A stretch of 64,000 nucleotides of DNA from Octopus vulgaris (GCA_951406725.2 OX597817.1:99014001-99078000), one strand, 5' to 3'; counted from the first letter of the stretch, positions 2,368 to 62,428 are shown. Numbers and translations are program-made. The notes: generated by a model from the sequence alone, not told the origin.

Positions 2368-2867
2368 GGAGCTTCTTCAGAAACGTACCTCTCCAATTAA
2401 ATCAAACGCAATAAAGAAAATGTTATGAAAATGGAAAATATATACAAAATAAATGATGCATGCAAAAAATTAGATTCACCCATTTTAAAATATTTTGTAC
2501 AAAAAAAAAAACGGGAGCGGGAAACGGGCACTCGTGGAATATAAACAAACATGTCAGACGAAACAAGGGACGGTAATCTACTTTTTAGGGTTAGGGTTAG
2601 TTTTAGAGTTGGGGTTAGTGTTAGGATATCATTAATAATGCCCGATTGGTAAAAGTAGATTACTGCCCCTTGTATCGTCTGATATGTTTATATTCCACGA
2701 GTACCCGTTTCTGTTTTATTTTTTAGTATAAAATATTTAAAGACGGATGATTCTTTCTAATTTTTTTTCTTTGCATACATAATTTATTTTGTATATATTT
2801 TCCATTTTCATAATTTTTCTTCATTGTATTTGATTTAATTGGAGAGGTGCGTTTCTGAAGAAGCACC
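2368..2867. mobile_element. Foldback MITE with ~215-bp TIRs, GG..CC ends (Merlin-like) and a TTAGGG-containing centre
   Basis: GGAGCTTCTTCAGAAACGTACCTCTCC at 2368 is the reverse complement of GGAGAGGTGCGTTTCTGAAGAAGCACC ending 2867. The arms match inward to ~2585/2650. Flanks ttattttt/tttttttt are a possible 8-bp TSD. Confidence 0.8.
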
Positions 2868-3354
2868 TTTTTTTTTTAACGTTCATTTTTGATGCATATA
2901 TAACATGCGAGTGACTATTATTTTAATTCTGAGAAATTGTTACAAGCAAAAAAAAAAAAGTGTTATACATATGATATCGTTAATTTGTTATTACAATTTA
3001 CGAGTATAACCATTGATTAAACACGATATTAATTACGATTTCTAGTTATCAGTAATATGCAAACTCACTTACCCGAGACAGTTTCCCATGCTTGATGTCT
3101 TAATGTTACGAGTATAGCACTTGTACCTACAAATCCGATAAATTCCACTGTATTATTATAATTTCGTTTCCCAAAAGACTGCTTGAGGCTGTACTATGTA
3201 GAATGCTACTTGTGAGTTGACAATGACAATATAACTATTTAGGAGTCGATACTACGACAACTATTGCCGAGTCGATAGTGTTAGTATGACAAAAGCTACT
3301 GCGAAATCAATAGAGATTATGTGACAACAGCTCCTGCGAAATCAGTAGAGACTA

Positions 3355-3768
3355 TGGTGTACAACACACAAGTGGTCGCCACCAGTAAAATGGAGAAATT
3401 ATCAGAGGACGATATCGAGGAGTGTCTAGGAAACATAACGAGGGAGGCTACTTTTATTGGCAGAGGAAGAAGATACGGCACGGTGGAGCTGAGGATTGCC
3501 ACCAAAGAAGAGCTGGCCCCACATTCCACCACCATTCTGGGGTCGAGCAAGGTAGCGCTGTTGCCCACGTATAGGGGAAGGTGCAGTGTTCGAGTTAAAT
3601 TAGCGAGAGTGCCACCCGAAATCAAAACAGAGTGATTGGTGGCAGCTATTCTGGCTGTCACTGAAGACAATCAAGAACTGGGACCGATAGGAGTGACAAA
3701 AATGTTAAACTGTTGGGGATTCGGAGTTGAGGAGTGGCTTTTTGCCACATTTGAAGACATAGATCGAA
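3355..3768 (+). pseudogene. Fragment of Tx1-type ORF1 (gag-like), inverted near-copy of 6705-7083
   Basis: YNTQVVATSKMEKLSEDDIEECLGNITREATFIGRGRRYGTVEL is nearly identical to the minus-strand ORF at 6873-7085 and homologous to RGKRYGTVEVRF in ORF1 at 57367. Confidence 0.8.
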
Positions 3769-3769
3769 T

Positions 3770-5439
3770 TATTGCACACTAGGGGCGAACATAGAAGGGA
3801 CAACACACAACATGTGGGGACACAAAGCGGGCAGAAAAAAAAGAACGTATAAAAACATGAAATGACAATGAAGAAATGAAAATCAAGTTACTCGCTCCAC
3901 CTCCGAGAAGCTTCACTTCTTTCTTACCTTAAACTCCGTTCCTTCCTGTATGTCTATTCCACACTCCTTTGTAAGGTCCGTATACAACATCTCATCTGGA
4001 AATTTACTTTTGTCGATATTTACCCTCCACATAGTCTACCCATATTGGGGTTTCTATTTTTCGTTGCCGATCTTCCGATATCAAAATGCATGCGTGTCAC
4101 CCTTTTATATTAACCTTCACTTCCATATTAACTAACATTGTGTCTTTCCACGTCATTGTGTCATCAACCAGTTTTCTATTCGAAGTGTCGTGTAACATAC
4201 ATGCAAAACAACTTTCTTCCTTGGCTGGGGGAGGGGAAGTTTGAGGATTCCTGTGTGTAAGTGCTTTCTTTTTTTGCTTTTGTGTCGGGGGGAGAGGGTG
4301 GGTTTGGTACTGCGGGGGAAGGGTGGGATTGGGAAGGTGTGTGGGGGTGGGGTGGGGTCTTAACTCTGTCTGATTCGCCTTTTACCTTTTTTGGTTTTTA
4401 TTCTCTGCAACCTTCCATGATTCGTCGTCCTTCACTTCTGTTGGTACTTCCTTCTCTGCTCTCGCTGGTTCTTCCTTGGTTTTCTCCTGGCTCTTCTCAG
4501 TTGGTGAAGGGCAATCCGCTCTGTTGTGGTCTTTCAGGCCATATTTCAAGCATCGAGGGATTCTGCGCTCCACCCTAACTCTCAACACCGCCTCCCCGAC
4601 TGTCACCGTCTCCACCATATTTTCCAGAGTCCCCACCGATCCTTGTATTATTAAATCCAAAGTTTGGCCGGCCTTTCCAATTTAAAGCTTCTGACTTAGT
4701 GGCCTGGAGGACTGCTATTTCATCCTCGTTACCCAGGAGTACAGCAGCCGCTACCCAGGCCACGTAGGTGGAATCCCCTCCACCCTCCACCCTCACCCTG
4801 GAAGCTCTCCTTCCGAGGTATGGGCGTAGAAGTACCACACTTTCCGTTCTTAGCGAGGCTGCTGAGTATTGTTTCGCCTTGGCTGCCTCTCTGAGGTGAA
4901 CCCCCACTGTGCCGAATCGGTTTCCTATTACATATCTTGCCAGATTGGTTTCAGGGCCTTTTCAATTTTATCTGTCGATATTATTTCAAATTTTCTCTCT
5001 TCAATTGAATATACTTTATAAATAATTGTTTTCTCATACATTCCTTTCATGACATCTTAGGGTGCGCGACAACTTTACATCGCCACCTTCTCTGTGCAAC
5101 ATCTGGTAATTTTTCAACATTGTTAGATTTACTTCCTTATTTTCTACTTCTGTAACTCTTGAATAACTTTTCTTATTGTCCATTTTTTTTTAATCAATTT
5201 TCTCTATTGCTCTTACGAGTTCCTCTTCCGAAGAAGACAGCCCAAAAGAGCTGTAATCCTCGTATAACATCATTGGCAACAACTGCTTCAAGGCAGCAAA
5301 AAACAGTTCACAAAGTGTTCAACACAAATTTTTCAACGATAAACAACAATTTTTAACTTACAAATGACAACTCCGTTCAATGCCGACCAATGCCTTGTGA
5401 GTGGATTTGGTAGACGGAAACTGAAAGAAGCCTGTCGTA

Positions 5440-5533
<94 letters not shown>

Positions 5534-5760
5534 TGTGTCTGTTTTTATCCCCCTAGCATTGCTTGACAACCGATGCTGGTGTGTCTACGTCCCCGCCACT
5601 TAGCGGTTCGGCAAAAGAGACCGATAGAATAAGTACTGGGCTTACAAAGAATAAGTTCCGGTGTCGATTTGATCGACTAAAAGGCGGTGCTCCAGCATGG
5701 CCGCAGTCAAATGACTGAAACAAGTAAAAGAAAAGAGTAACCCGCGAAATCAATTGAGCC
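3770..5760 (-). mobile_element. ORF1-only Tx1-derived non-autonomous element A, with a SINE inserted in its 5' end
   Basis: Decayed ORF1 (LRTESVVLLRPYLGRR, WVAAAVLL, RRIPRCLKYGLKDHNRADC zinc-knuckle remnant). It is followed by a T-rich 3' UTR ending CCCCTAGTGTGCAATAA, with no ORF2. Confidence 0.65.
5382..5740 (+). mobile_element. 5'-truncated octopus-type (OR-like) SINE with internal (TA)n(TG)n
   Basis: GCCTTGTGAGTGGATTTGGTAGACGGAAACTGAAAGAAG ... GGTGCTCCAGCATGGCCGCAGTCAAATGACTGAAAC is the same body as the complete copy at 32855-33245. Confidence 0.85.
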
Positions 5761-5761
5761 T

Positions 5762-7380
5762 CTTTTTTTTACCCACACAGGCTACAAAGAGGTGCCTTAC
5801 AATACAAAAAAAATACAAAACAAACTCGGGGAACTAAAAATTACAAAAAAGGAAATCAAGTAAAGAAGAAAAAATAAAAGAAACGAATGGAATTATGAAA
5901 GAATGATAAAAATGAAGCGCAATGCCCACTAAACCTTCGAAGTCGAGTGGTTACATTTATACATGATTTTTTTTACAGCCTTTCCCATTTTTTAAAACAT
6001 AAAATTCACATTCTCATCCTCTTTTTTTTTTCTATGCTGTTCATACGCCATTCTTGTTAGTTCCTTGTATTCCATTACAGATGGCGGAAGGTCACGTAAC
6101 CATATCCTGTCTCTCACACTTACCGATCCACCGAATGTATCCATAAATCTATCAAACCTTTCGTCCTGCACCATAATTCCTCTATCATCTCTGCTAAATT
6201 CTTCTCTGGGTAGCTTCACCCTCACCAGTCCTTTCCATTTTACTATTCTTTTTCCACCTCCGCACTTTTTGTAGACTATCAGGAATCTCTTATAATTACA
6301 TTCTTCTGTTTGCTTGTTTGTTTTTTCTCTACTGCTTGTGTATTTTTAGATTTAAGTTGTTCCCTACCTTTTTGTGGATTCTCGGTTTCTTACTTTCTTC
6401 TTTTGGGGCTAACAAACCCCTCACTCCCCTCACTCCCCTCCTTTACCTTTTTCACCTCGATCTTTTCTTTCTCTTTTGCGTCACTGACGCACTCAACATC
6501 GCTTTTGTCTTTTCTTGTTTCAGTTCTTCCTTCCATCTCATTTTCCTGTTCCTTCTCTACTTACTCTCTCAGAGCATGTTCTAACTTGGGGCACTGTGTC
6601 TTCATATAACCCCTCATTCCGCATACATAACAATTAGGTCGACGTCCCTCTACAACAACTTTCAACTTACTTTCCTCCGCAATCTCAATCTGGTAGGGGA
6701 TTCGCTCTATGTCTTCTCAACTCCGAATCCCCAACAGTTTAACATTTTTGTCACTCCTATCGGTTCCAGTTCTTGATTGTCTTCAGTGACAGTCAGAATA
6801 GCTGCCACCAACCACTCTGTTTTGATTTCGGGTGGCACTCTCGCTAATTTGACTCGAACACTGCGCCTTCCCCTATACGTGGGCAACAGCGCTACCTACC
6901 AGAATGGTGGTGGAATGTGAGGCTGGCTCTTCTTTGGTGGCAATCCTCAGCTCCACCGTGCCATATCTTCTTCCTCTGCCAATAAAAGTAGCCTCCTTCG
7001 TTATGTTTCCTAGACACTCCTCAATATCGTCCTCTGATAATTTCTCCATTTTACTGGTGGCGACCACTTGTGTGTTGTACATCACCGTCCCATCACTCCC
7101 ATCCTTTACTGCCTCCTGCGGAGGGACCAGTTTGATAGTGCCTACCTTAAGAAGTTGTTCACTTCTTAAAACCTCCTACATGTCAACTATTATGTACCTC
7201 GCTTCTAACAGCGTGGCTGCTTTCGCCCCAGCGGTCCTTGCATAGCTTTCCATGCTAGAAAAACTAAGTTTTTTTCCCATCCACAATGGGGAGAAAAAGA
7301 GCAAAAAGCAATAACAGCAGCAAATAACAAATACACGCAAGTCGCAAATAACAAACAGAAAATCAGTTGAACCCTTCACT
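5762..7380 (-). mobile_element. ORF1-only Tx1-derived non-autonomous element B
   Basis: ORF1 runs from ~7282 to the stop at 5992, with RGRRYGTVEL and a zinc knuckle (RRPNCYVCGMRGYMKTQC). The 3' UTR ends CCTGTGTGGGT plus poly(A). Confidence 0.75.
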
Positions 7381-9123
7381 TTTTTATTACCCATAGGGGG
7401 ATGAATAAAGAGGTTTTTACGGCCAAAAGGACATTACAAAACATAAAATCGGAGAAATAAAAATACAAAAGGAAAATCGAGCAAAGAAGAAAAATAAAAG
7501 AAACGAGGGAAATTATGGAAAATGATATAATGAAGCGCTATGCCCACTCGATACCCGAAATCGAGTACCTACATTTGGACATAATTTTGGACAGTTTTCA
7601 CTTCTTTTTATTTTTCCATTTTTTAAAAGTAAAAGTTCACATTTTCATCATTTTCTTTTTAAATATTGTTCATCTGAAGTTTTCCAACCTTGCATGTTCC
7701 ACCAGAGTCAGCATTGCATTAAACAACACCGGCACGTCAATCATCATCACCAATTCACGGTAAGAATTTTTTTTAAATGTCGTACCTTTCGTCGTTTACC
7801 GGCATACATCTCTCATTTTCCCTGAACTTCTTTTTGGACAACTTCACTCTTATCAAATTCTTCCACTTGGGTATCCGTTTTTCCACCTCTATACTCTTCT
7901 TATAGTAAATTATAGATCCCTTATTCCTTGTAATCCATTTCTGCTGGTTCCTCTCCACCTCATGCACAAATTTAGACGGCTCTCCACCTTTTTTTTTTTT
8001 TTTGGACGTCCTCTCAGTTTCTGCTGCTGGTCCCGGTGAGTGTTCTCTAGACTTTGCTTTCTTCCTCCTTTTGGGGCTGACAAACCCGTCACTCCCCTCC
8101 ATTGTCGCTTTCTCCTGTCTTCCTCAATATTTTCTTTCTCTTTTGCATCGCTTTTGTTATTCTTCGTTTCAGTTTTTCCTTCCATCTCCAATTCACGTTC
8201 TTTATCCTCTACTTTCTCACTCTGCGCATGTTCCCTCAGCGTATGTTCGTACATGGGGCACTTTGCTTCATATGACCCCTCACTTCACAAATGTAGCAAT
8301 TGGGTCGACGTCCTTCCACAAACACGTTCACAGAACTCTCCTCCGCAATCTCAATTTGGTAGGGGATCCTTTCAATGTCTTCAAATGTGGCAAAAAGCCA
8401 CATCTCGACTCCACATCCCCACCAGTTCAACATATTTGTTCTTCCCACTGGTCCCAGTTCCGGACTGTCTAAGGTGGCAGCCAGAATAGCTGCCACCAAC
8501 CACTCTGTTTTAATTCCGTGTGGCACTCTCGCGACTCTGATTCGAACCCTGCGCCTTCCCCTATACGTGGGTAGCAGCGTCACCTTGTCCGACCTCAGAA
8601 TAGTGGAGGAGTGTGAGGCCGCCTCCTTTTTGGTGGCAAACCTCACCTCTACCGTGTCATACCTCCTCGCTCTGCTAACAAATATCGCCTTCTTCATTAT
8701 GTCTCCCAGACATTCCTCAACACCTTCTTCTGATAACTTCTCTATGTTGTTTGTGGCGACTGCTTGTGTACACCACCGTCATATCGCTTTTATTGTTCAC
8801 TGTTTCCTGCGGAGGAACCAGCTTGATAGCGTCTCCCTCATGCACAAATTGTTCACTTCTTAGAACTTCTTCCATGTCAACCTCTATCTGCCGCTGCGGT
8901 TCTAGCATAGTTTTCTATTATAGAAAAGATAAGTTTTTCCTCATCCACAATGGGGAGAAAAACAGCAAAAAACAACAACAGCAAAGAAAACAAATACGCA
9001 CGAGACACTTCAACAATAAATTTCACAGTACTGATAACAATATCACCAGTCTCAAAAACACAACCTTCCTCTGTCAAACCGTGGTCAAAAGTGACCAACT
9101 CAAACAGCAAATCAATGGAGCAG
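7381..9123 (-). mobile_element. ORF1-only Tx1-derived non-autonomous element C
   Basis: ORF1 has RARRYDTVEVRF and a CCHC knuckle (RRPNCYICEVRGHMKQ), and its C-terminus ends ENVNF as in element B. The 3' UTR ends CCCCCTATGGGTAATAAAAAA. Confidence 0.75.
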
Positions 9124-9850
9124 TTTTTTTTATTTCCCACAAGGGGACAACACAGAAGGGGACGGCACAATCTGAATGGGGTCAGACATAACAAATGATT
9201 TAACACAATTATGAAATTAAAAATTTTACAATATATAAAAAGTTCGAATGGTGAGACATACCAAGACATTACAACTAGAGTGGGAGACAGGTTAGCCCAT
9301 TCTGCTGCCAGTTCGCATAGACATTTGCCAGCAGGTGCCCAAACAAGTCTGGCATGCTCTTATACAACTCATAGGGTAGACCATCCAGTGCCGACGCCTT
9401 ACCCACGCCGCAGTCTGCTATAACCTCAATTACCTCCTCAGGCGTGATCGGTCCTTCACAACGCCCCGCGTCCTGCACCGAGAGGCGCGGCAGCCCGGCG
9501 AGGAAGTCCGTTAGGTCCCCCCTACTGTCCGGTCCGCCCCCACCCCCACACACGAAAAGCTGAGCGAAGTGCTCCTGAAAGGCCTCACACGTTTCCTCGG
9601 GCTCGTTTATCAACTTACCTCGTTGGTTCGTCAAAGATCGAATTGTGCCATCGTTTCCACGTTGGGCTTCCACCACTCGGGCCCATCCCGCGGCCTTGAT
9701 TCCTTCACAACCCACTGCACGAAGCACACAACAAGAAACCAACTTTTACAATACCTGTAATAACAGCAATTTCAACAACACTAATCAATACCATTCACAA
9801 GCTCACAGCAAATCAATGGAATCTCTGTGGCAACAAAGGGCGTTGATCTA
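9124..9850 (-). mobile_element. Internally deleted Tx1 element D (5' end + ORF2 fragment + 3' end)
   Basis: EGIKAAGWARVVEAQRGN...LDGLPYELYKSMPDLFGHLLANVYANWQQNG matches ORF2 at 59695-60447. The 3' end is CCCCTTGTGGGAAATAAAAAAAA. Confidence 0.75.
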
Positions 9851-10099
9851 TAAATAAGTTTTTATTTTATCTATAATTTTACTTCGTGCAATTTTTTTTT
9901 TTTTTCAGTACAAAAACTCTTGTTCGCTACGGTAATGGTAGGGACATGGTTTCAGTTGTTGGTTTCAGCTACTTTACTAGCTACCAGTAATATACTTAAT
10001 GTAGATTGAACCGAATAGTTTACTCTTAACATTGTATCTATGGAAATACTGAGTGGTGGAATTAATTGGGAATACTTGATTAAATACAAGAAATGAAAA

Positions 10100-10875
10100 T
10101 GTTACGTGAGAGTTAACAAAGAGTGAATTATCAAGGTATTATCGCGGAAAAAGAGAACATGGGTGAACGTTAACAGAGTAAGAGCATTAACAGGGACAGG
10201 AGATGTACTTTAACAGAGGGCGAACATTAACATGAGGTTAGCGTTGAGAAGTATTAACAGGAGAATAAAGTTTACAGGAAGTATACATTAACAGATAGTG
10301 AATGTTTATCAGAGTGACTGAACTCACATTAATTTGGGGGTGCAGAGCTGGCATTTCTCACTAGCTAAAGAAAGCCGAGTAACAGGATCTGGTTGATGAA
10401 GCTTTGGTCAAAAGATGTTACACAGCTTCATACTTATTGAAGTCAGCCGACGCGGTTTTCCAGTAAGACTTGTGTACTATTTCTTACAGAAGAAGATTGG
10501 TCTGGAACTCAAATAACTGAAGACGGCAACCAAAAATATCTCCATGGCAACTGAAACCGGTTTAAGGTGGTTCTGGTTGTGGTTGTCAAGAGATTGCACA
10601 TGGAACCCTTCTGTAGGTGAAGGTTAAGTCAGTCCTCGCTTCCCCACTAAGGTAAAGCGAGTAGGCAAACAAGCGAGACGCTTGCGATCCTGAGATGCTT
10701 GCTGAAGATACACTAGGGTTTCCGCCGTTGCGATAACTTTAGTCGTCATCAGGAGAACTGGCAATACCTTTAAGTAGCTCCTGCAATTTTCGCTTGAAGC
10801 AAAAGATTTCTTATGTTTCGTTGCACTTAACAGGGGTAAACGCTAACAAGAGTTGTACGTTAACAGAGGAAATGG
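10100..10875. repeat. Degenerate ~20-bp minisatellite (TTAACAG core) interrupted by a ~500-bp insert
   Basis: ttaacag(a/g) recurs at 10110-10315 and again at 10826-10870. Confidence 0.55.
10320..10825 (-). pseudogene. Possible heavily decayed Gypsy pol fragment (RT/RNase H junction)
   Basis: Minus-strand peptide KLHQPDPVTRLSLASE resembles the L.HPDP..PL.L.tDAS start of Gypsy RNase H. Support is weak. Confidence 0.3.
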
Positions 10876-11070
10876 AACTTTTGAAGTCTGCAGCAAGAGT
10901 GAAAATTCACTTTGACCACTCCAATACCGATAAAAATGTGGAGGACTTTAAACAATTACGTCAATAGTAGAAAGAGTATTAAGCTCTCTAGTTGTGAGCG
11001 GGTTCTGACGTCTACACGAAACGATTCTTGCTCCATCTCACACTCTTTCCTTTATAAAAGAATATTAGTA

Positions 11071-11598
11071 TGTAACGGGAACTCGTTGCTTCTTTACACT
11101 TTTGGGGTGCAACTTGGGTGCAACACAATTTCCTTTCTTTTTGTTTCTAGAAACTACCAGTCAGGAACGAAAAGCAAGTTTAGAAATATATAATTCTTTA
11201 TTCTCTTATACAAAAATGAAACACGATGGTATACTGGTATCCATTCTTACAACAATTCAGTAGCAATAGATAGGTTAAATCCCAAGCGTCTGGGACAGGA
11301 GAATAGGTTGATCACACGTATGAAAGTACGTCCTTTCCCTTCGATCGCTGTGCCTCAAGTCTTAGCGTCCAGAGACAGCGGAATAAAATTGGTCTGCAAC
11401 AATTTCGTATGAAAGTCGTTCTGCTACTGCCTGTCTCTCTGTACCCCTTTGTTCAGGGAACCTCCCTCGCCTATCAACTAATGCCACATCAGCATTTCCT
11501 TCTTCAGTGGTTCGCGCATGCGTGAGAGGGTACTTCCCTTCTGCCTTTCCAGAAGGCTCCAAACCCGCACGCGCACACTGATGTATAACGTCACTACA
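11071..11598 (-). mobile_element. Solo LTR (528 bp)
   Basis: TGTAAC...ACTACA termini, exact 4-bp TSD AGTA (11067-11070 / 11599-11602), AATAAA on the minus strand near 11200. Confidence 0.75.
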
Positions 11599-11829
11599 AG
11601 TATTTCAATTTTGTTATGGCCATAAATACGTTATGACATAGATACATACATCATATATAGGTCGCAAAGTTCCCTCCTTCCATTGTAAAGGGGGTTAGTG
11701 GAAGATATGAACGCTGATATTTTGAGGAATAGTCTGAATTTCATTAAGGATGTATAAAAGTCTTTCCCAGGGTAGTTTTGTTTGCGAATTTACAAAGATA
11801 CTTATTCTGGCAGTCATGTTCGGGATTAG

Positions 11830-12057
11830 CTCCATCTGATGTTCACTTTCATTAGCCGTTGTTTTCCACCAATCAATTTAGTATTCCAATGTTTCATACT
11901 TCATTAATCATTATCTCCATGTTTTCTGCCATACCAAAAATTGCTTTACCTATCCAACTGCACAGTGCCATGTCATATGCTTTTCTGTAATCCAGCCATG
12001 TTACAATCAATCCCGTCAATCTACGTTGACAATTTGTAATTATCATTTTATCAACTA
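11830..12057 (-). pseudogene. R4/Dong-type RT fragment
   Basis: Minus strand reads LVDKMIITNCQRR...VTWLDYRKAYDM..SWI, like the R4-clade WIDYKKAYDSVPHSWI motif. Confidence 0.6.
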
Positions 12058-17807: not shown

Positions 17808-19412
17808 ACCTGGCTGGCTGGCCGGGCCTTGGCTGCCTGGCTGGCCCAGCTTAGGCTTGCTGGCTGGAAACTGGCCTAGGCTGGCTGGCAGGGCCTTGGC
17901 TGGCCGGGCTTTGGCTGCCTGGCTGGCCCAGCATTGGCTTGCTGGCTGGAAACTGGCCTGGCCGGACCTTGCTGCCTGGCTGGCCCAGTCTTGGCTTGCT
18001 GGCTGGAAACTGGCCTAGGCTGGCTGGCTGGCCTTGCCATCATGGCTGGCCTGGCCTAGGTTTGCTTGTTGGAAACTGGCCTAGGCTGGCTGGCTGATCT
18101 GGCATGGCTGCCTGGCTGGCCCAGCCTAGGTTTTCTGGCTGGAATATAGCCTAGGCTTGGTGGCTGGCCTGGCCTTGGCTGCCCAGCTGGCCAGACCTAG
18201 GTTTGCTGGCTGGAAACTGGCCTAGGCTGGCTGGCTGGCAGGGCTTTGTCTGGCTGGCAGGACTTTGTCTGGCTGGCTTGGTTTTGGCTGGCTGGGTTTT
18301 GGCTGGCTGGGTTTTGGCTGGCTGGCTGGCCCAGCCTTAGTTTACTGGCTGGAAATTTGCCTAGGCTGGCTGGCTGGCCGGCCTTGACTTGCTGGCTGGT
18401 AACTGGCCTAGGCTTGCTGACTGGCCCTGTTTTGGATGCCTGGCTGGCTGGCCAGGCTTTGGCTGCCTGGCTGGCCCGGCCTTGATTTACTGGTTGGAAA
18501 TTGGCCTAGGCTGGCTGGCTGGCTGGCCGGCCTTGACTTGCTGACTGATAACTGGCCTAGGCTTGCTGGCTGGCCCTGTTTTGGATGCCTGGCTTGCCCG
18601 CCCTTCGCTTGCTGGCTGGAAACTGGCTTAGGCTGGCTGGCAGGCCAGGATTTGGCTGCCTGGCTGGCCCGGCCTAGGCTTGCCGGCTGGAAACTGGTCT
18701 AGGCTGACTGGCTGGCCATGCCATGGATGCCTGGCTGGCTGGTCATGCCATGGATGCCTGGCTGGCCTGGCCTAGGTTTGCTGGCTGGAAATTGGCCTAG
18801 GCTGGCTGGCTAAAGGGACTCAGCTGCCTGGCTGGCCCGGCCTAGTTTTGCTGGTTGGAAACTGGCATAGGTTGGCTGGCTGGCCAGGCCTAGGAAGCCT
18901 GGCTGGCTCGGCCTTGGCTTGCTTGCTGGAAACTGGCCTAGGCTGGCTACCTGGCCCTGTTGTGGATGCCTGGTTGGCCCGACCTAGGTTTGCTGGTTGG
19001 AAACTGGCCTTGGCTGGTTGGCTGGCCAGGCTTTGGATGCCTGGCTTGCCCGGATTTGACTTGCTGGCTGGAAACTGGGCTAGGCAGGCTGGCTGGCTGG
19101 GCCTTGGCTGCCTGGCTTGCCTGGCCTAGGTTTGCTGGCTGGAAATTGGCCTAGGCTGGCTGGCCAGGCATTGGCTTGCTGGCTGGAAACTGGCCTAGGC
19201 TGGCTGGCTGGCCCAGATTTGGTTTTTTGGCTGGAACTGGCCTAAGCTGGCTGGCTGGTTGGCTGGCTGGGCCAGCCAGGCAACCAAGCCAGCCAGCCTA
19301 GGCCAGTTTCCAGCCAGCAAACTAAGGGCCGGCCAGCCAGGCATCCATGGCATGGCCAGCCAGCTAGCCAGCCTAGGCCAGTTTCCAGCCAGCAAGCCAA
19401 AGCCCGGGGCCA
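17808..19412. repeat. GC-rich (GGCT)-based minisatellite, ~60-80-bp higher-order unit, last ~140 bp inverted
   Basis: GGCTGGAAACTGGCCTAGGCTGGCTGG recurs about 20 times and switches to the complement (CCAGCCAGCC) at ~19271. Confidence 0.9.
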
Positions 19413-26386: not shown

Positions 26387-29300
26387 TCATCATCATCATC
26401 ATCATCATTTAACATCCGCTTTCCATGCTAGCATGGGTTGGACGGTTCAACTGGGGTCTGGGGAGCCCGAAGGCTGCACCAGTCCAGTCAGATCTGGCAG
26501 TGTTTCTACAGCTGGATGCCCTTCCTAACGCCAACCACTCCGAGAGTGTAGTGGGTGATTTTATGTGTCACCGACACAGGTGCCAGACGAGGCTGGCAAA
26601 CGGCCACGCTCGGATGGTGATTTTTTATGTGCCACCGACACAGGTGCCAGACGAGGCTGGCAAACGGCCACGCTCGGATGGTGTTTTTTATGTGCCACCG
26701 ACACAGGTGCCAGATGAGGCTGGCAGACGGCCACGCTCGGATGGTGTTTTTATGTGCCACCGACACAGGTGCCAGATGAGGCTGGCAAACGGCCACGATC
26801 GGATGGTGTTTGTTACATGCCCACAGCACGGAGGCCAGTTGATGCGGCACTGGCTACGGCCACGTTCGGATGGTTTTCTTGTGTGCCACGTGCCACCGGC
26901 ACTGGTACCACAAAGATACAAATTCCATTGATCTTCATCTATTTGATTTGTTTTGATTTTCACTTGCCTCAACAGGTCTTCACAAGTGTCACAAGAAGGA
27001 AGGTAAGCACAGGTGGACTGACTACGTCCCAGGTAGGGGCCACGGGTTATGGCCTGACTAGTCTTGCCGGGTCTTAGGATGGTGTTTTTATGTGCCACTG
27101 ACATAGGTGCCAGATGAGGCTGGCGAACGGCCACGATCGGATGGTGTTTGTTACATGCCCACAGCACGGAGGCCAGTTGATGCGGCACTGGCTACGGCCA
27201 CGTTCGGATGGTTTTCTTGTGTGCCACGTGCCACCGGCACTGGTACCACAAAGATACAAATTCCATTGATCTTCATCTATTTGATTTGTTTTGATTTTCA
27301 CTTGCCTCAACAGGTCTTCACAAGTGTCACAAGAAGGAAGGTAAGCACAGGTGGACTGACTACGTCCCAGGTAGGGGCCACGGGTTATGGCCTGACTAGT
27401 CTTGCCGGGTCTTAGGATGGTGTTTTTATGTGCCACTGACATAGGTGCCAGATGAGGCTGGCGAACGGCCACGATCGGATGGTGTTTGTTACGTGCCCAC
27501 AGCACCGAGGCCAGTCGATGCGGTACTGGCTACGGCCACGTTCGGATGGTTTTCTTGTGTGCCACCGGCACTGGTACCACAAAGATACAAATTCCATTAA
27601 TCTTCATCTATTTTGATTTGTTTTGATTTGATTTGATTTGATTTTGATTTTCACTTGCCTCAACAGGTCTTCACAAGTGTCACAAGAAGGAAGGTATGCA
27701 CAGGTGGACTGACTACGTCCCAGGTAGGGGTCACAGGTTATGGCCTGACTAGACTTGCCGGGTCTTCGGATGGTGTTTTTATGTGCCACCGACACAGGTG
27801 CCAGATGAGGCTGGCGAACGGCCACGATCGGATGGTGTTGTCGGTGCGGTACTGGCTACGGCCACGTTCGGATGGTTTTCTTGTGTGCCACCGGCACTGG
27901 TACCACAAAGATACAAATTCCATTGATGTTCATCTATTTTGATTTGATTTGATTTGATTTGATTTGATTTTCACTTGCCTCAACAGGTCTTCACAAGTGT
28001 CACAAGAAGGAAGGTATGCACAGGTGGACTGACTACGTCCCAGGTAGGGGCCATGGGTTATGGCCTGACTAGTCTTTCCGGGTCTTCGGATGGTGTTTTT
28101 GTGTGCCACCGACACAGGTGAGAGATGAGGCTGGCGAACGGCCACGATCGGATGGTGTTTGTCATGTGCCCACAGCACGGAGGCCAGTCGATGCGGTACT
28201 GGCTACGGCCACGTTCGGATGGTTTTCTTGTGTGCCACCGGCACTGGTACCACAAAGATACAAATTCCATTGATGTTCATCTATTTTGATTTGATTTTGA
28301 TTTTGATTTTCACTTGCCTCAACAGGCCTTCACAAGTATCACAAGGAGGAAGGTATGCACAGGTGGACTGACTACGTCCCAGGTAGGGGCCACAGGTTAT
28401 GGCCTGACTAGTCTTGCCGGGTCTTCGGATGGTGTTTTTATGTGCCACCGACACAGGTGCTAGATGAGGCTGGCAAACGGCCACGATCGGATGGTGTTTG
28501 TTATGTGCCCACAGCACGATGGCCAGTCGATGCGGTACTGACTACGGCCACGTTCGGATGGATTCTTGTGTGCCACCGGCACTGGTACCACAAAGATACA
28601 AATTCCATTGATCTTCATCTATTTTGATTTGATTTTGATTTTGATTTTTACTTGCCTCAACAGGTCTTCACAAGTGTCACAAGAAGGAAGGTATGTACAG
28701 GTGGACTGACTACGTCCCAGGTAGGGGCCACAGGTTATGACCTGACTAGTCTTGCCGGGTCTTCGGATGGTGTTTTTATGTGCCACCGACACAGGTGCCA
28801 TATGAGGCTGGCGAACGGCCACGATCGGATGGTGTTTGTCATGTTCCCACTGCACGGAGGCCAGTCGGTGTGGTACTGGCTACGGCCACGCTCGGATGGT
28901 TTTCTTGTGTGCCACAGGCACTGGTACCACAAAGATACAAATTCCATTGATGTTCATCTATTTTGATTTGTTTTGATTGATTTTCACTTGCCTCAGCAGG
29001 TCTTCACAAGTGTCACAAGAAGGAAGGTATGCACAGGTGGATCGACTACGTCCCAGGTAGGGGCCACGGGTTATGGCCTGACTAGTCCTGCCGGGTCCTC
29101 TCATGCACAGCACACTTCCATAGGACTCGGTCTTTAGTCATTTCCTTGGTGAGACCTAAAGTTCGAAGGTCGTGCTTCACCACCTCGTCCCAGGTTTTCC
29201 TGGGTCTACCTCTTCCACAGGTTCCCTCAACTGCTAGGGTGTAGCACTTTTGCACACAACTATCTTCAGTCATTCTCGTCACATGACCATACCAGCGCAG

Positions 29301-56518: not shown

Positions 56519-56649
56519 TTATTATTATTATTATTCTTTCTTTCTTTCCGAGACGACGGACGTGTGTAAAGCAGCACCGTAAGTTTTGTGCCAATTTGAT
56601 TGGAAATTTCTCTAAAAGTTTTTACATTTTTCGATAATTGTGTGGCCAA
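56032..56649 (-). pseudogene. PLE GIY-YIG endonuclease 3' fragment with an (AAT)n insertion
   Basis: IYQCKI..FYIGASSSQLSKRISNH...CNICNSE...CKH. Confidence 0.85.
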
Positions 56650-57061
56650 GCCGACTAACTTCTTGCGGAGCTAGTTGGCTAGGCAAAATTTTACCCCATT
56701 GGGGGTAAAATCACTGTTTAAAATATTGACATTTGCATTTTATTTCACTTACAAATTTCCAAAATGTCGTTAAAAAGAGCAGCTGGCTCTTCCCTTCTTG
56801 CAACCCCCCCCCCCCTCCACAAGAAAATATTGATTCTCCAAACCGCCCATTTCGTGCCTTAAAAGGCAAAGAAAACTCTTCGATGAAACATGTCGTTCCA
56901 AAAAAGAATGAAAATGAAAACGAAGGCGTCACTTTTGATGTCTTCGAAGACTTCCCTCCTCTTCCCTCTGCAAGCGTCCCAGTAGGGGGGAAAAGACGGA
57001 CAAAAGCAACAAAGATGGCGTCATCTTTGACGTCAATCAGAATTTTCTTTCTCTCCATTCC

Positions 57062-57869
57062 ATGAGTGCAACAGTAGGGGAAAAAGAAGAAAAGAAAATA
57101 ACAAACAGCATCACCGACAACACCACCAGCAACAACACAACAAGCCACCATAGCAATTTTGCTTCCATCACAAAAGAAAACACAGAGCAAATTCAAGTTA
57201 CATTTGACGAAATAAAATCTGCTAAGGAGTTGTTGAGAAAAGAGGAAAACAGTGTTTTCCTCAATACACCTCAACAACTCATAAACGAAACAAAAAAAAA
57301 AGAACTGTAATTTATAACGTTTTCGATAAGAAAAACAAAAAAATAACTAATGCAACACCCCAACAATTGGAAATGGCTCTTAAACCCATATGGGCCAAAA
57401 AGAGCTATGTCACAAGAGGGAAGCGTTACGGGACGGTGGAGGTTCGCTTCCCAACGGAAGACGATGCAAGGGCGCATACCATTTCGCCCTTGCAAAATGA
57501 TAATTTCTTTCTGGTCCCATCATACCTCGGGCGGAAAGTACAAAAAATTAAAATTGATATAGTACCCCCCGAACTCAGTATATCATGGCTGGTGGCGGCT
57601 GTCCTCTATGACATAGAGGACACTGCCACTATTCTAGATGTACGAAGGGTAAGAGAGAAGAACTGGTCAGGTATGGATGTTCAACTGCTGGTACAAATCC
57701 AGCAGGAAAACATTAATGCCATACCTGACTCAGTCATTTTACCAGACGGAACCAGGCTGCACGTTACTGTGGAGGAGCGAAAGCCAAAATGTTACCTCTG
57801 TAGTAGCGAAAACCACCTTAAGAAGGACTGCCCCATTCACAAAAAAAGAATGGAGGCATACGGCAAGAG

Positions 57870-57900
<31 letters not shown>

Positions 57901-58665
57901 CAACAACAACAGAAACAACAGCACGAAACACCAAAGGCTGCCACACCACCAACACCATCACCACCACCGCGACGAACGACACCACCTCCAACAACAACCA
58001 CCAAACCAACACCAACCCCAGCACCAAGAAAAACGACAACAAAAAAACAAGGAGAAACACCAACACCGTCACCATCACCAAAAGACAGCAACAACACCGC
58101 TACCAGCAAAACCAACAAAAATCTTTCACCCTGCTGATGAAGCGGACCCGACAGCCATCCCCTTTCCGGATCAGGACAGCTCGGATTGTGCGAGCACTGA
58201 TACCGAGAAAGGGGAATGGCACACAGTGCCTCCAAAGAAGAAAAGGAGGAAAAAACAAAAGGACACACAGGGGAAGCACGAACAAATAGTGCTTCCCAAC
58301 ATCAACAACAACAACATACACTCACAACAACAAACAACAACAACACTTTCGACACCACTACTGCCACTGCCACACACACCAACACACACAGACACGATTA
58401 CAGCAATAAACACAAAAGATGAAAAACTAGTTACATATCTAAAAGACAATACAAGTACACAAATTGAAGATTTCATTATACCAACACACAACACACCACT
58501 AGCACACAATCAAAATTAATCAAAAACACATAGCGAAATAAAACAAATATTCCCTAACGATGTCGGATCGCTAGGGAAAAGTTTCTCAAAGAAACTTTAT
58601 AAAAATATTATTGAAGCACCCGTGCAAAAGCACAAGGGAGCCACCCCCACCACCAACAACAGTAA
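57062..58665 (+). pseudogene. Tx1 ORF1 (CCHC zinc knuckle, polyQ and Pro/Thr linker), frameshifted
   Basis: RGKRYGTVEVRF, WLVAAVL, KCYLCSSENHLKKDC, GEWHTVPPKKKRRK. Confidence 0.8.
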
Positions 58666-58710
58666 GTAGAGCCTTTTTCTCCTTTTATTTTTTTTTCTCA
58701 CCTTTGAAAC

Positions 58711-61700
58711 GTGGCAAAACTTAGAATCGGTTGCTTGAATATGAGAGGCCTCGGGTCACCTTGGAAACAGGGTCACCTGTTAAACGACCTGAGGTTTCAT
58801 GATGTGGATGTAGCAGCCATCAGTGAAACCAGGCTCTCCGACCCGCAGGAACTCGCAGCCCTTTTCGGCGGATACGAGATATTTCTATCTCCGTGTCGGC
58901 CGGGAGCGGGCGGTGGTGGTACTGTGGTGTTGTTTCGGAAGGGCCTGGACTTGAAAATAAGGACAGTCTTCCTGGATCCGGAAGGTAAGTTGGTGGTCCT
59001 CGACGTAGACGGTAGTGACGGCGGTGCTTTCAGACTGCTGGCTGCCTACGCTCCGACAGGAGCAGGGCAGTCGGATTATTTCAAACGTCCGGAAGTTTTC
59101 CTGGGAACGTCACGCACTCTAGTGCTAGTTGGGGATTGGAACGCTGTCTTAGACGAACGTTTCGATCGGGTGGGGCAGGGAAGCGTCTGATAGGAGAGGA
59201 GGGTGCAAGAGCCTCGCCAATCTACTCGGACGCTTTCAGCTGTCCGACAGATTTCGACTAGACAACCCGAATGTGCCAATGTGGACTTGGACCAATCGCA
59301 TCGGGTCGTCTAGATCGTACTTAGATAGAGTGTTTTGTAGGCCAGCGGATAAGGATAGCATAGGGTATCCACAATTCCACATAGTCGACTACACGGACAA
59401 CAAATTCGTGATCTGTACGGTCGACTTAGATAGGCTACGTAGACAGGGACCCGGCTACTGGAAGCTGAACGCGTCGTTAACGGCGTGCAAAGCTTACAGA
59501 GACCGGATTAGTTTACTAGTTAAGCGGGCGCTCACGGGGGCAATCATCAACAACAACTGGTGGTTTGCCCTCAAGAGAGCAATTAGAGTAGAGTCGATTA
59601 GGTTTAGTAAGACTCTAGCTATTGAACGTAGGAAGAGAGAGCGGATTTAGTTAAGAAACTAGACGAGGCTCTTGAGACTGGCATCGCGACCGACGTGTTG
59701 GCGGCAAGGTTGGCCCTCGACCAACACTTTGACGCCAAACACGAAGGCTGCGTTGTCAGAGCTAAGGCACGTTCGCTAAGCGGGGAGGGGATTAGAGCCA
59801 CTCGATGGGCCCGCGTGGCGGAGGCGAAGCGAGGCAACAAAGCAACCATTCGGTCTTTGATGGACCAGAACGGGCGCAAGGTTACCGAACCGAAGCAGAT
59901 GTGTACGGTGTTTCAGCGGCACTTTTCTCAGCTGTTTGGGGTGAGCGGTGGTACGGCCAACAACGGTACAGACTTCAGTGTGTACCTGGACGGCCTACCG
60001 CGGCTCTCGAACAACGAGGCAGAGTGCTGCGAAGGACCGATATCTGCCTGGGAAGTGGAGGAAGCGATGAAGAGTTGCACGAGAGGTAGATCGCCGGGTT
60101 TGGATGGTCTGCCCTACGAGCTTTACACTTCAATGTCAGACTTATTTGCGGGCCTGTTGGCAAATGTCTACTGCAACTGGCAGCAAAACGGGAGAATTCC
60201 TGCTTTTGTCTGTCGAGGGGTGGTGGCTTTGCTAAAAAAAGGACCCAAACAAGGGGGACGTTATAGGGAATTTTCGGCCCATCACTCTGCTCAATGCAGA
60301 GTTGAAGATTTTGGCCAAGGTGCTAGCCAAGAAATTGGCGCTTGTCGTGGACAAGCTGGTTGGCAAGACGCAGACATGCGCCGTGCCGACCAGGTCGATA
60401 CACGACAACCTCCATCTCATGCGCTACATCATAGAAAGGGTGGGTAACGACGCTGGCGCGGGTGGGGCTTTGATCAATTTAGATCAGAGTAAAGCCTTCG
60501 ATAGGGTCGACCATCGGTACCTGGCAGCTGTTCTCAAGGCAGCCGGCTTCGGTCCAGTCTTCCGAGGGTGGGTCGCTGCTTTATACAGCAACATCTGCTC
60601 GGTGATACGGGTGAACGGTCACCTTTCGGAACCGTTTGACCTCTCGCGTTCGGTCCGCCAAGGATGCCCTATCTCCTCCCTCTTGTACATTTTGACTCTC
60701 GAGCCACTACTGCGCAAGTTGGAGGCTTTGAGGGGTATCCCGCGCGATCTAGGAGGCGGAAACAGCGTGTCTGCCTATGCCGAGACGACGTCACCGTGAT
60801 GGTGTCGAGCCACAGGCACATTGGCCTGATTGGCGAGACACTAAACGAGTACGAAGCGGTGACAGGGGCAAAGATTAACGCGGAAAAGTCTGTGGGCTTG
60901 CAACTGGGCACCTGGAGAAGCAAGCCCATGCCGTCCAACAGCGTCGTAGGGCGCTGGACAGACGGACCCGTTAAACTGCTCGGGGTCTGGTTCGGTCCGG
61001 ACCTCCAGGTGGATAAAAACTGGGAAGAAGTGACGAGCAGGGTGGCACGTTTCACCCAGAAATGGGCCGAGAGGAAGCTGTCCCCGAAAGGTCGAGCGGA
61101 GGTGGCGAATGCATACATCGCATCCGTCATCTATTACCGCTTGACCGTCGTCCCTTGTCCCAACCGGTGGTTGGCCAAGCTGGTACGCCTGCTCTTCGAC
61201 TTTTTGTGGAAGGGTCAGGTGCCACAGGTCAGCGATCCATCTGCTGTCAACGACCGCTGAACGGAGGCCTTGGCATGCCGTGGTTACTGATGCGCAGACA
61301 TGCGCTCAGGCTGCGATATCTCAAGCGTTTCCTAGACGGTGATCAGGTGTGGTCGTCTTTTGTCAGACGCGACTTTCCGCAGCTCGTCTCTTTGACAGAG
61401 CTGCAGACCTGGATCAAACGTAGACCGAGAAAGGGCGCTTGGCACCTCGAGTGCCGTCAAGCTCTCTCCGCCCTCCGCCAGGCGGGCAATGCGATCGGTT
61501 TTAGTTCCACTCAAGCGTTCTATAGAGGGTTAGTGGAGGGAAAATGCGACGACGTTCTCGGGGAAACTCTTCACGTTGATGATAACGAACTGAGCGATCT
61601 GTTCGGAAGGACTTTCGGGCCGGGGCCAATGGATAATTTCCAGAGGTCGCTCGCCTGGCAGTGCTACCGAGGGGCTCTGCCTGTTCGGGATAAACTCTAC

Positions 61701-62123
61701 CGGCACGGAAGTGCCGTCAGCCGGGCCTGCCCGAGGTGTTGCCAGGACGACGAAACCGTTCTGCACGCACCGGTCCAGTGCCCGAGTATTGCTGAACTAT
61801 GGGTTTATGTCGAACAGCTACTGTCGCGTATAGGACGGATCCGGCTATCAGCCGAATCCATAGTGAAGATTGCCCCACCGACAATGTGGAAGGGTCAGGT
61901 ACACACTGTGGTGAAAGAGATTGTATGGTGGACCCGTTTGAAAGGGCTAAAGTCAGACACTTTCCTCTTTGGTCAAGGCCTCATCAACTTTTTCAAGTTT
62001 CACTTGAAAAGGAAGATGAGGTTAGAGAGGAGAGCGCTGTCCGATAGCAAGTTTTCTGAAAGGTGGGTGAATTGTGCGAGAATGGCCAGTATAAATGGAC
62101 CAATTCTCAGGTTTCGCCTGTGA
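58711..62123 (+). pseudogene. Tx1 ORF2 (APE endonuclease + RT + C-terminal Zn finger), with several frameshifts and stops
   Basis: LNMRGL, ISETR, GDWN, SYLDR, GPGYWKLN, SPGLDGLPYE, LDQSKAFDRVDH, VRQGCPIS, a frameshifted YADD, CPRC..ETVLH...C. Confidence 0.92.
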
Positions 62124-62389
62124 TTGAAAAAGGTTTTATAAAAGGAGAAAAGGGCTCTCTACCCCCTTTTTTGACCAGGCTACCGTTGGCTTTTATGGGT
62201 TTTTTCCACCAGGAACCTTTCGTAACGCCTCCCCCTTTTGGGAGATTTTCATTGTTATAATCTTTCGTTGTTGAACTGTTTTTACTCGGATTTTTTACAA
62301 ACGGACAAAACCCTTTGTAACCTTTCGTCCTGTTTTGTCCCTTTATGTTTACTAATCATGTGTGTCAGCCCTTGTGGCCAATAAAAAGA

Positions 62390-62428
<39 letters not shown>

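Follow-up and report, generated by a model that had tools for sequence, protein, structure and literature searches.

A mixed head-to-tail array of L1/Tx1-type LINE derivatives in Octopus vulgaris, probably built by successive insertions into a regenerated host site

Polar, mixed head-to-tail arrays with ORF1-only elements are known from the telomeric arrays of HeT-A and TART, and HeT-A joins chromosome ends without a target-site duplication (TSD). Promoter-proximal integration placed by the transcription machinery is known from Ty3 and Tf1, which are LTR elements with an integrase. Among Tx1-clade elements, tandem insertions "sandwiching a TSD" are described in a section of Kojima 2015 (PMC4494074) for Tx1-Mar LINEs and SINEU-3 in crocodilians as well as for Tx1 in Tx1D of Xenopus, and are explained there by sequential insertion. 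Double insertion is presented as a general route to tandems, with R1, jockey and the P element in Drosophila as examples, in the part of the work that deals with these elements (McGurk and Barbash, 10.1101/158386). The formation of arrays by reuse of a TSD is already known; the potential significance of the locus described here lies in the choice of the site.

The array was analysed in a 64-kb stretch of Octopus vulgaris DNA, which is called the window in the following. It consists of four co-oriented L1/Tx1-type derivatives that lie head to tail on the minus strand (A, B, C and D), namely one internally deleted LINE (A) and three ORF1-only elements (B, C and D). As best overall explanation we propose that these four LINE derivatives probably inserted one after another into a host TSD that was regenerated each time. 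The features, in coordinates of the window, are:

9849..9856, minus strand: TATA-like box TATTTATA, recognised by its sequence, with a putative promoter function
9808..9826, minus strand: target copy 1, the upstream TSD, in unique flank DNA (motif part 9821-9808)
9124..9807, minus strand: element A, internally deleted LINE with short 5' UTR, ORF2 fragment (about 9723-9296), 3' UTR and A-run
9107..9123, minus strand: target copy 2, A/B junction (motif part 9120-9107)
7380..9106, minus strand: element B, decayed, ORF1-only, zinc-knuckle type, begins at the family start
7358..7379, minus strand: target copy 3, B/C junction (motif part 7371-7358)
5763..7357, minus strand: element C, decayed, ORF1-only, 72% identical to B, without about 110 nt of the 5' UTR
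5744..5762, minus strand: target copy 4, C/D junction (motif part 5758-5744)
3769..5743, minus strand: element D, decayed, ORF1-only, third family, ends with AATAA, A-run missing
5381..5735, no strand assigned: high-copy repeat with CA/TA microsatellite, which we take to be SINE-like, a few bases inside the start of D (edges approximate)
3355..3768, plus strand: inverted ORF1 fragment between the tail of D and target copy 5, sister of C in the tree
3336..3354, minus strand: target copy 5, candidate far-end TSD (motif part 3350-3336)
3287..3366, no strand assigned: 35-bp tandem repeat in unique DNA, contains motif copies 5 and 6 (copy 6 at 3315-3301)

The original prediction described four different, co-oriented and apparently 5'-complete elements without spacer, each poly(A) being followed by the start motif of the next element. 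The array itself is borne out, with all four minus-strand motif copies in place and one at every junction; for three of them the gap to the preceding A-run is 3, 8 and 4 nt. Several details had to be corrected. From a tail to the start of the next element's own family sequence there are 17-22 nt, motif included, and the tails are runs of 6-8 A, mostly inside AATAAAAAA and of similar length across the families, while the A-run of D has been lost. Two elements are incomplete at the 5' end: in A about 85 nt of 5' UTR lead directly to the ORF2 fragment and the 3' UTR, and C lacks the 5' UTR portion that is present in B. The motif copies 5 and 6, the SINE-like repeat within the first bases of D and the inverted C-like fragment had been overlooked. 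Exact matches to TCMAYTGATTT occur four times in the window, exclusively at these four places (0.27 expected; four or more in none of 100 shuffles), a significance that is overstated because the pattern was derived from these same sites. Contigs from independent public runs span the B/C junction and the point where A meets its upstream flank, and they also run across the inverted fragment's borders on either side; at the A/B junction they overlap with fewer than 31 letters on one side, and no bridging contig for the C/D junction was present among the pieces listed. One contig across the TATA-like box (9708-9860) stems from a run guessed as RNA, which may be DNA, and was left unused as evidence.

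The assignment of A to D to ORF1 or ORF2 rests on the comparison with a decayed full-length LINE in the same window (56530-62390, plus strand), which comprises ORF1, endonuclease, RT and zf-RVT and in which Pfam recognised zf-CCHC (20.7 bits, cut-off 20.8), Exo_endo_phos, RVT_1 and zf-RVT. This LINE is bordered by a TTA microsatellite on either side, a third kind of landing site. With the ORF2 of this LINE, element A shares 54% identity. The ORF1 of the LINE is matched by B, C and D with E values from 1e-11 to 4e-26, and these three gave no match to any of its four ORF2 pieces. In Pfam neither the ORF1 pieces of B and D nor the fragment of A were recognised, and the endonuclease piece had no match among solved structures. 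An ORF1 with a CCHC knuckle, an ORF2 partner with APE, RT and zf-RVT, and A-rich 3' ends in the form of short A-runs, together with TSDs in the relatives, place the elements among the APE-type non-LTR retrotransposons of the L1/Tx1 group. The associated LINE and the elements may belong to the Tx1 clade; the listed homologues of its ORF2 include no named Tx1 reference, and the nearest named ones among them are from Argonauta. Long copies located in the head of a tRNA-type SINE share 84-87% identity with A over its ORF2 fragment, and A is an internally deleted member of their family. Among genomic spans with both ends called, a few of which are doubtful calls, an ORF2 match was found in 0 of 22 and an ORF1 match in 18 of 22, so B, C and D represent dispersed ORF1-only families, comparable to HAL1.

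HAL1 (half-L1) of mammals is likewise a non-autonomous LINE derivative with ORF1 only; it belongs to another lineage, and the part of PMC5753468 devoted to it mentions neither a strong site preference nor arrays. The B, C and D families work like HAL1 without being members of it: HAL1 proper derives from mammalian L1, and the nearest named ORF2 homologues of the LINE associated with these families are from Argonauta. In Tx1-Mar/SINEU-3 and Tx1/Tx1D, too, another transposon serves as the target, both for the Tx1-clade elements and for their passengers, and the TSD is 16 nt long. Unlike in the cases treated in that section of PMC4494074, the passengers here encode ORF1, the arrays mix families, and insertions occur in a Helentron-like repeat, in the head of a SINE, in a small inverted-repeat element and, in this window, at a unique site. 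With the tandems of R1, jockey and the P element the present array shares an insertion that preserves and regenerates its target and a junction TSD derived from the host locus, but those treated in the relevant part of 10.1101/158386 are same-family dimers, whereas here three families share one site four-deep. In the open-licence literature no ORF1-only passengers in mixed arrays, no Helentron-like target and no TATA-proximal landing were found; Repbase reports and supplements, which were outside the scope of this search, may hold such families. In the main text of the Octopus vulgaris repeat paper (PMC13282606) the word "target" is absent.

By sequence and by analogy to the relatives, the 17-20 nt at the junctions are most likely a landing site of the host, which was duplicated at each of four separate insertions. 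An autonomous L1/Tx1-type LINE would have provided the ORF2 that reverse-transcribed each element at the site, in trans for B, C and D, and for A too if A moved after its deletion. As every insertion would duplicate the 17-20-nt site, a usable target would remain, and the next arrival would use the regenerated TSD, giving rise to a mixed head-to-tail array. We consider it very probable that the insertions were sequential and that each TSD was left as a reusable target for the next arrival, in line with the independent insertions into a shared target that the original prediction had proposed as one of its options. A weaker part of this explanation is that a TATA box upstream may position the insertion about 30 nt downstream.

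The TSD model predicts a fifth motif copy beyond D. Such a copy was found directly after the inverted fragment and a sixth one 35 nt further on, both past the far end of the array in unique DNA. A probable TSD copy lies at every junction and at both outer ends, as in arrays formed by double insertion; the far-end copy is displaced by the inverted fragment, whose position between D and target copy 5 counts against the TSD reading. In an alignment of the flank upstream of A with the flank that holds the 35-bp tandem repeat, 32 of 42 columns are identical, a score reached by one shuffle in 2000 and, when the query was 61 nt long, by 0 of 4362 genomic tiles; with a longer, AT-rich query of 201 nt the similarity was matched by 9 of 522 tiles. 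The motif copies differ at 1-5 of 15 positions and disagree in their first 5 nt, and their positional ladder is one of the 4 most parsimonious among 105 trees. No empty allele of this site was present among the joints listed from public reads, which leaves analogy together with copies 5 and 6 as the basis for the TSD reading; an empty site with a single target copy was seen for a 374-bp repeat used by the relatives. A genome search with both flanks, which skips very common words, returned only the window itself. The inverted fragment is 94% identical to C and keeps about 30 nt that are missing from C; it possibly arose when a nick in the target was repaired from a template.

For the analysis of relatives, the best genomic matches of each 3' end were sampled (best 40 candidates scored per search, 30 loci fetched), which yielded 90 flanks as non-redundant rows, a few of them miscalled, and 8 more rows without a tail call. 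The relatives are bracketed by clean TSDs of 14-20 nt, which differ between loci and are free of the motif; a control set for these TSDs, contaminated by loci with common targets, was left out of the statistics. Of the B-type flanks 17 of 25 lie in one site of the 374-bp Helentron-like repeat, which is also used by 9 of 29 D-type flanks. One SINE-head site accounts for 21 of 23 A-type flanks, a count that includes many duplicates from contig C31. B, A and D thus all exceed the 20% of flanks in one sequence type that Kojima applies for a target preference. B-type copies split the 374-bp repeat with a duplicated overlap of about 17 bp (L268, L270, L271, L273), and the long A-family copies L143 and L147 have a SINE-head TSD. 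The site of the 374-bp repeat has 197 exact matches in the genome, and all 30 fetched copies were empty. In one empty copy of the repeat, a subterminal inverted repeat of imperfect match is present along with a hairpin that is weak (-1.4 kcal/mol), and the 3' flanks of the repeat are T-rich; subterminal inverted repeats, a 3' stem-loop and T-rich insertion sites are the hallmarks of Helentron-associated elements (HINEs) named in the pertinent section of PMC4067079. The idea that the Helentron-like repeat had captured the elements was considered and rejected, as most copies of the repeat are empty, its interruption goes along with a duplication, and other sites harbour members of the same families. 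A further landing place of B- and D-type elements is a small inverted-repeat element that has a TA run at its centre; there they lie about 27 nt past TATAAAG (L278, L280, L282, L305).

Further mixed arrays, which the original prediction had suggested looking for, do exist, and each is spaced by its own local target. Four of the 14 B-type starts behind the target of the 374-bp repeat come after the tail of another element. The array at L203:548-6600 (G000:C2:142.895-142.902 Mb) comprises four or more units of several families, each with an ORF1-type part or tail, which are spaced by the target of the Helentron-like repeat; the first fully seen unit looks chimeric, with two ORF1 matches. Automatic calling placed another element behind 8 of the 90 flanks, and three of these 8 come from copies of a single array that has been duplicated. 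One two-element array with the same flanks is found at three places (L038, L212 and L257, at C10:6.82 Mb and C29:13.97 and 15.96 Mb), which means that arrays can also be copied as DNA. Inner junctions at first seemed to differ from outer ones by TTGC versus TCGC, which did not hold with more loci. In L143 the LINE is preceded by a SINE with a similar tail, at first regarded as a D-type copy. An abundant SINE has a tail resembling the 3' ends of these LINEs, and behind it there is often internal sequence of a further SINE copy (L258, L265, L267, L273, L274). On contig C31 (12 Mb) the SINE site is occupied by at least 17 short A-type 3' fragments that are nearly identical to one another (L054-L079) and likely go back to a segmental amplification.

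In the window, the first base of TATTTATA is located 30 nt before the first target copy, and the box has one mismatch. Insertion sites, one per target class and including the one in this window, were scored for a TATA-like 7-mer with at most one mismatch at -33..-24, an interval fixed after the flanks had been inspected; about 4 spurious-looking automatic TSD calls were left out. A TATA-like box was present at 10 of 17 sites, or 9 after a spurious match in a SINE tail had been dropped, compared with 0-4 of 17 in other 10-nt intervals and a background of 15% at random positions. All 8 TSD-defined sites added to this set, including 5 short truncated copies, are without the box, and L108 proved to be without it on recheck. 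Pooled over the independent sites, the box occurs in 9 of 25 (p=0.008 against the 15% background), in 8 of 24 without this window (p=0.02) and in 9 of 20 long copies (p=0.001); among the 16 sites without it are the SINE sites and those of each of the 5 short truncated copies. The offset is -29 in five sites and -30 here. Since the interval was set after inspection and an exact TATA match is found at 3 of 17 sites only, this evidence is suggestive. The short copies (250-480 bp; L151, L160, L162, L263, L359) have clean TSDs of 16-19 nt at pyrimidine-rich sites without TATA and form a second insertion class.

Repeat targets confound sequence with position; a unique site used by three families separates the two. 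That position played a part in the choice of the site, with landing about 30 nt downstream of a TATA box at a putative transcription start, has slightly less than even odds; such siting would explain why families with different usual targets converged on one unique site. It might also be argued that the same TSDs were reused and the site was set solely by a loose sequence or DNA-shape preference of the endonuclease or by annealing of the RNA 3' end, with purine-rich first bases and AT-rich DNA upstream, the TATA-like box being incidental or a signal of bendability. We regard this as a serious possibility, if somewhat short of an even one. Many TSDs start with AGAG, AGGG, GAGG or AAGG, most sites are without TATA, short copies land at pyrimidine-rich sites, and the double insertion described in the cited part of 10.1101/158386 requires a motif preference only. 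A preference for 4 nt, however, corresponds to millions of sites in 2.8 Gb and leaves four hits on one unique site unexplained, and the TATA-like matches cluster at -26..-31 over three unrelated repeats and several unique sites.

In its full form, siting by position can be put forward only tentatively: an L1/Tx1-type LINE would aim about 30 nt behind pol II TATA boxes, and ORF1-only passengers would share its machinery and borrow a host promoter, so that arrays grow 5' only. The window would then represent, with the same reserve, a unique site hit four times by three families with differing usual targets. If position behind TATA decides, LINEs would have their own equivalent of the promoter-tethered integration of LTR elements, the easy target switching of Tx1-type elements would be explained, and Tx1-type elements would be directed mutagens of core promoters. 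Positional siting also predicts growth at the 5' end, because the upstream copy alone keeps the TATA box. The ladder of motif copies requires 8 steps with 5' growth versus 10, though only with copy 6 as outgroup. Terminal branch lengths in three arrays gave no consistent older side, and dating of array members by terminal branches was abandoned as uninformative.

The original prediction had read the motif as a 5' signal common to the elements, with new copies homing to the 5' end of a relative. Every element here indeed has the motif in front, and the geometry of the junctions by itself is compatible with insertion just upstream of an older copy. Other copies of the B, D and A families, however, start without the motif, and the family sequence aligns only past it; copies 5 and 6 are not followed by a recognisable element start. 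The proposed enrichment of TCMAYTGATTT behind the tails did not appear, as 0 of 90 flanks of relatives contain the motif within 30 nt. Genome-wide, tail plus motif was found 56 times versus 38 times for the reversed control, which is near chance, and among 30 of these 56 loci that were fetched, element homology was seen in 0 of 28 non-self loci. Among 142 loci, this window alone has the motif adjoining an element end. A common 5' signal is thus very improbable, and "self-targeted insertion" holds in the weak sense that each insertion regenerates its site, not in that of a shared 5' motif. As the array mechanism is published, the motif constitutes no new signal. Rfam identified no RNA family at the motif (three chance-level matches in 2500-12000), which argues against a snRNA or tRNA target here.

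That the array is one old tandem duplication, or was built elsewhere and moved as a block, is hardly credible: B and C are related and one two-element array occurs at three genomic places, but B and C share just 72% identity and fall into separate clades of the tree, no comparison revealed meaningful DNA similarity between A, B/C and D, which excludes a single duplication, the searches made gave a single copy of each flank and of every junction, and the motif matches the far flank of this very locus.

Apart from the array, the window contains a 338-bp tandem array of 7 copies (26559-29097) and a complex CTGG-rich satellite (17812-19258). Between 52284 and 55163, tandem repeats and GC skew are mirrored around about 53.8 kb, a pattern that suggests a large inverted repeat.
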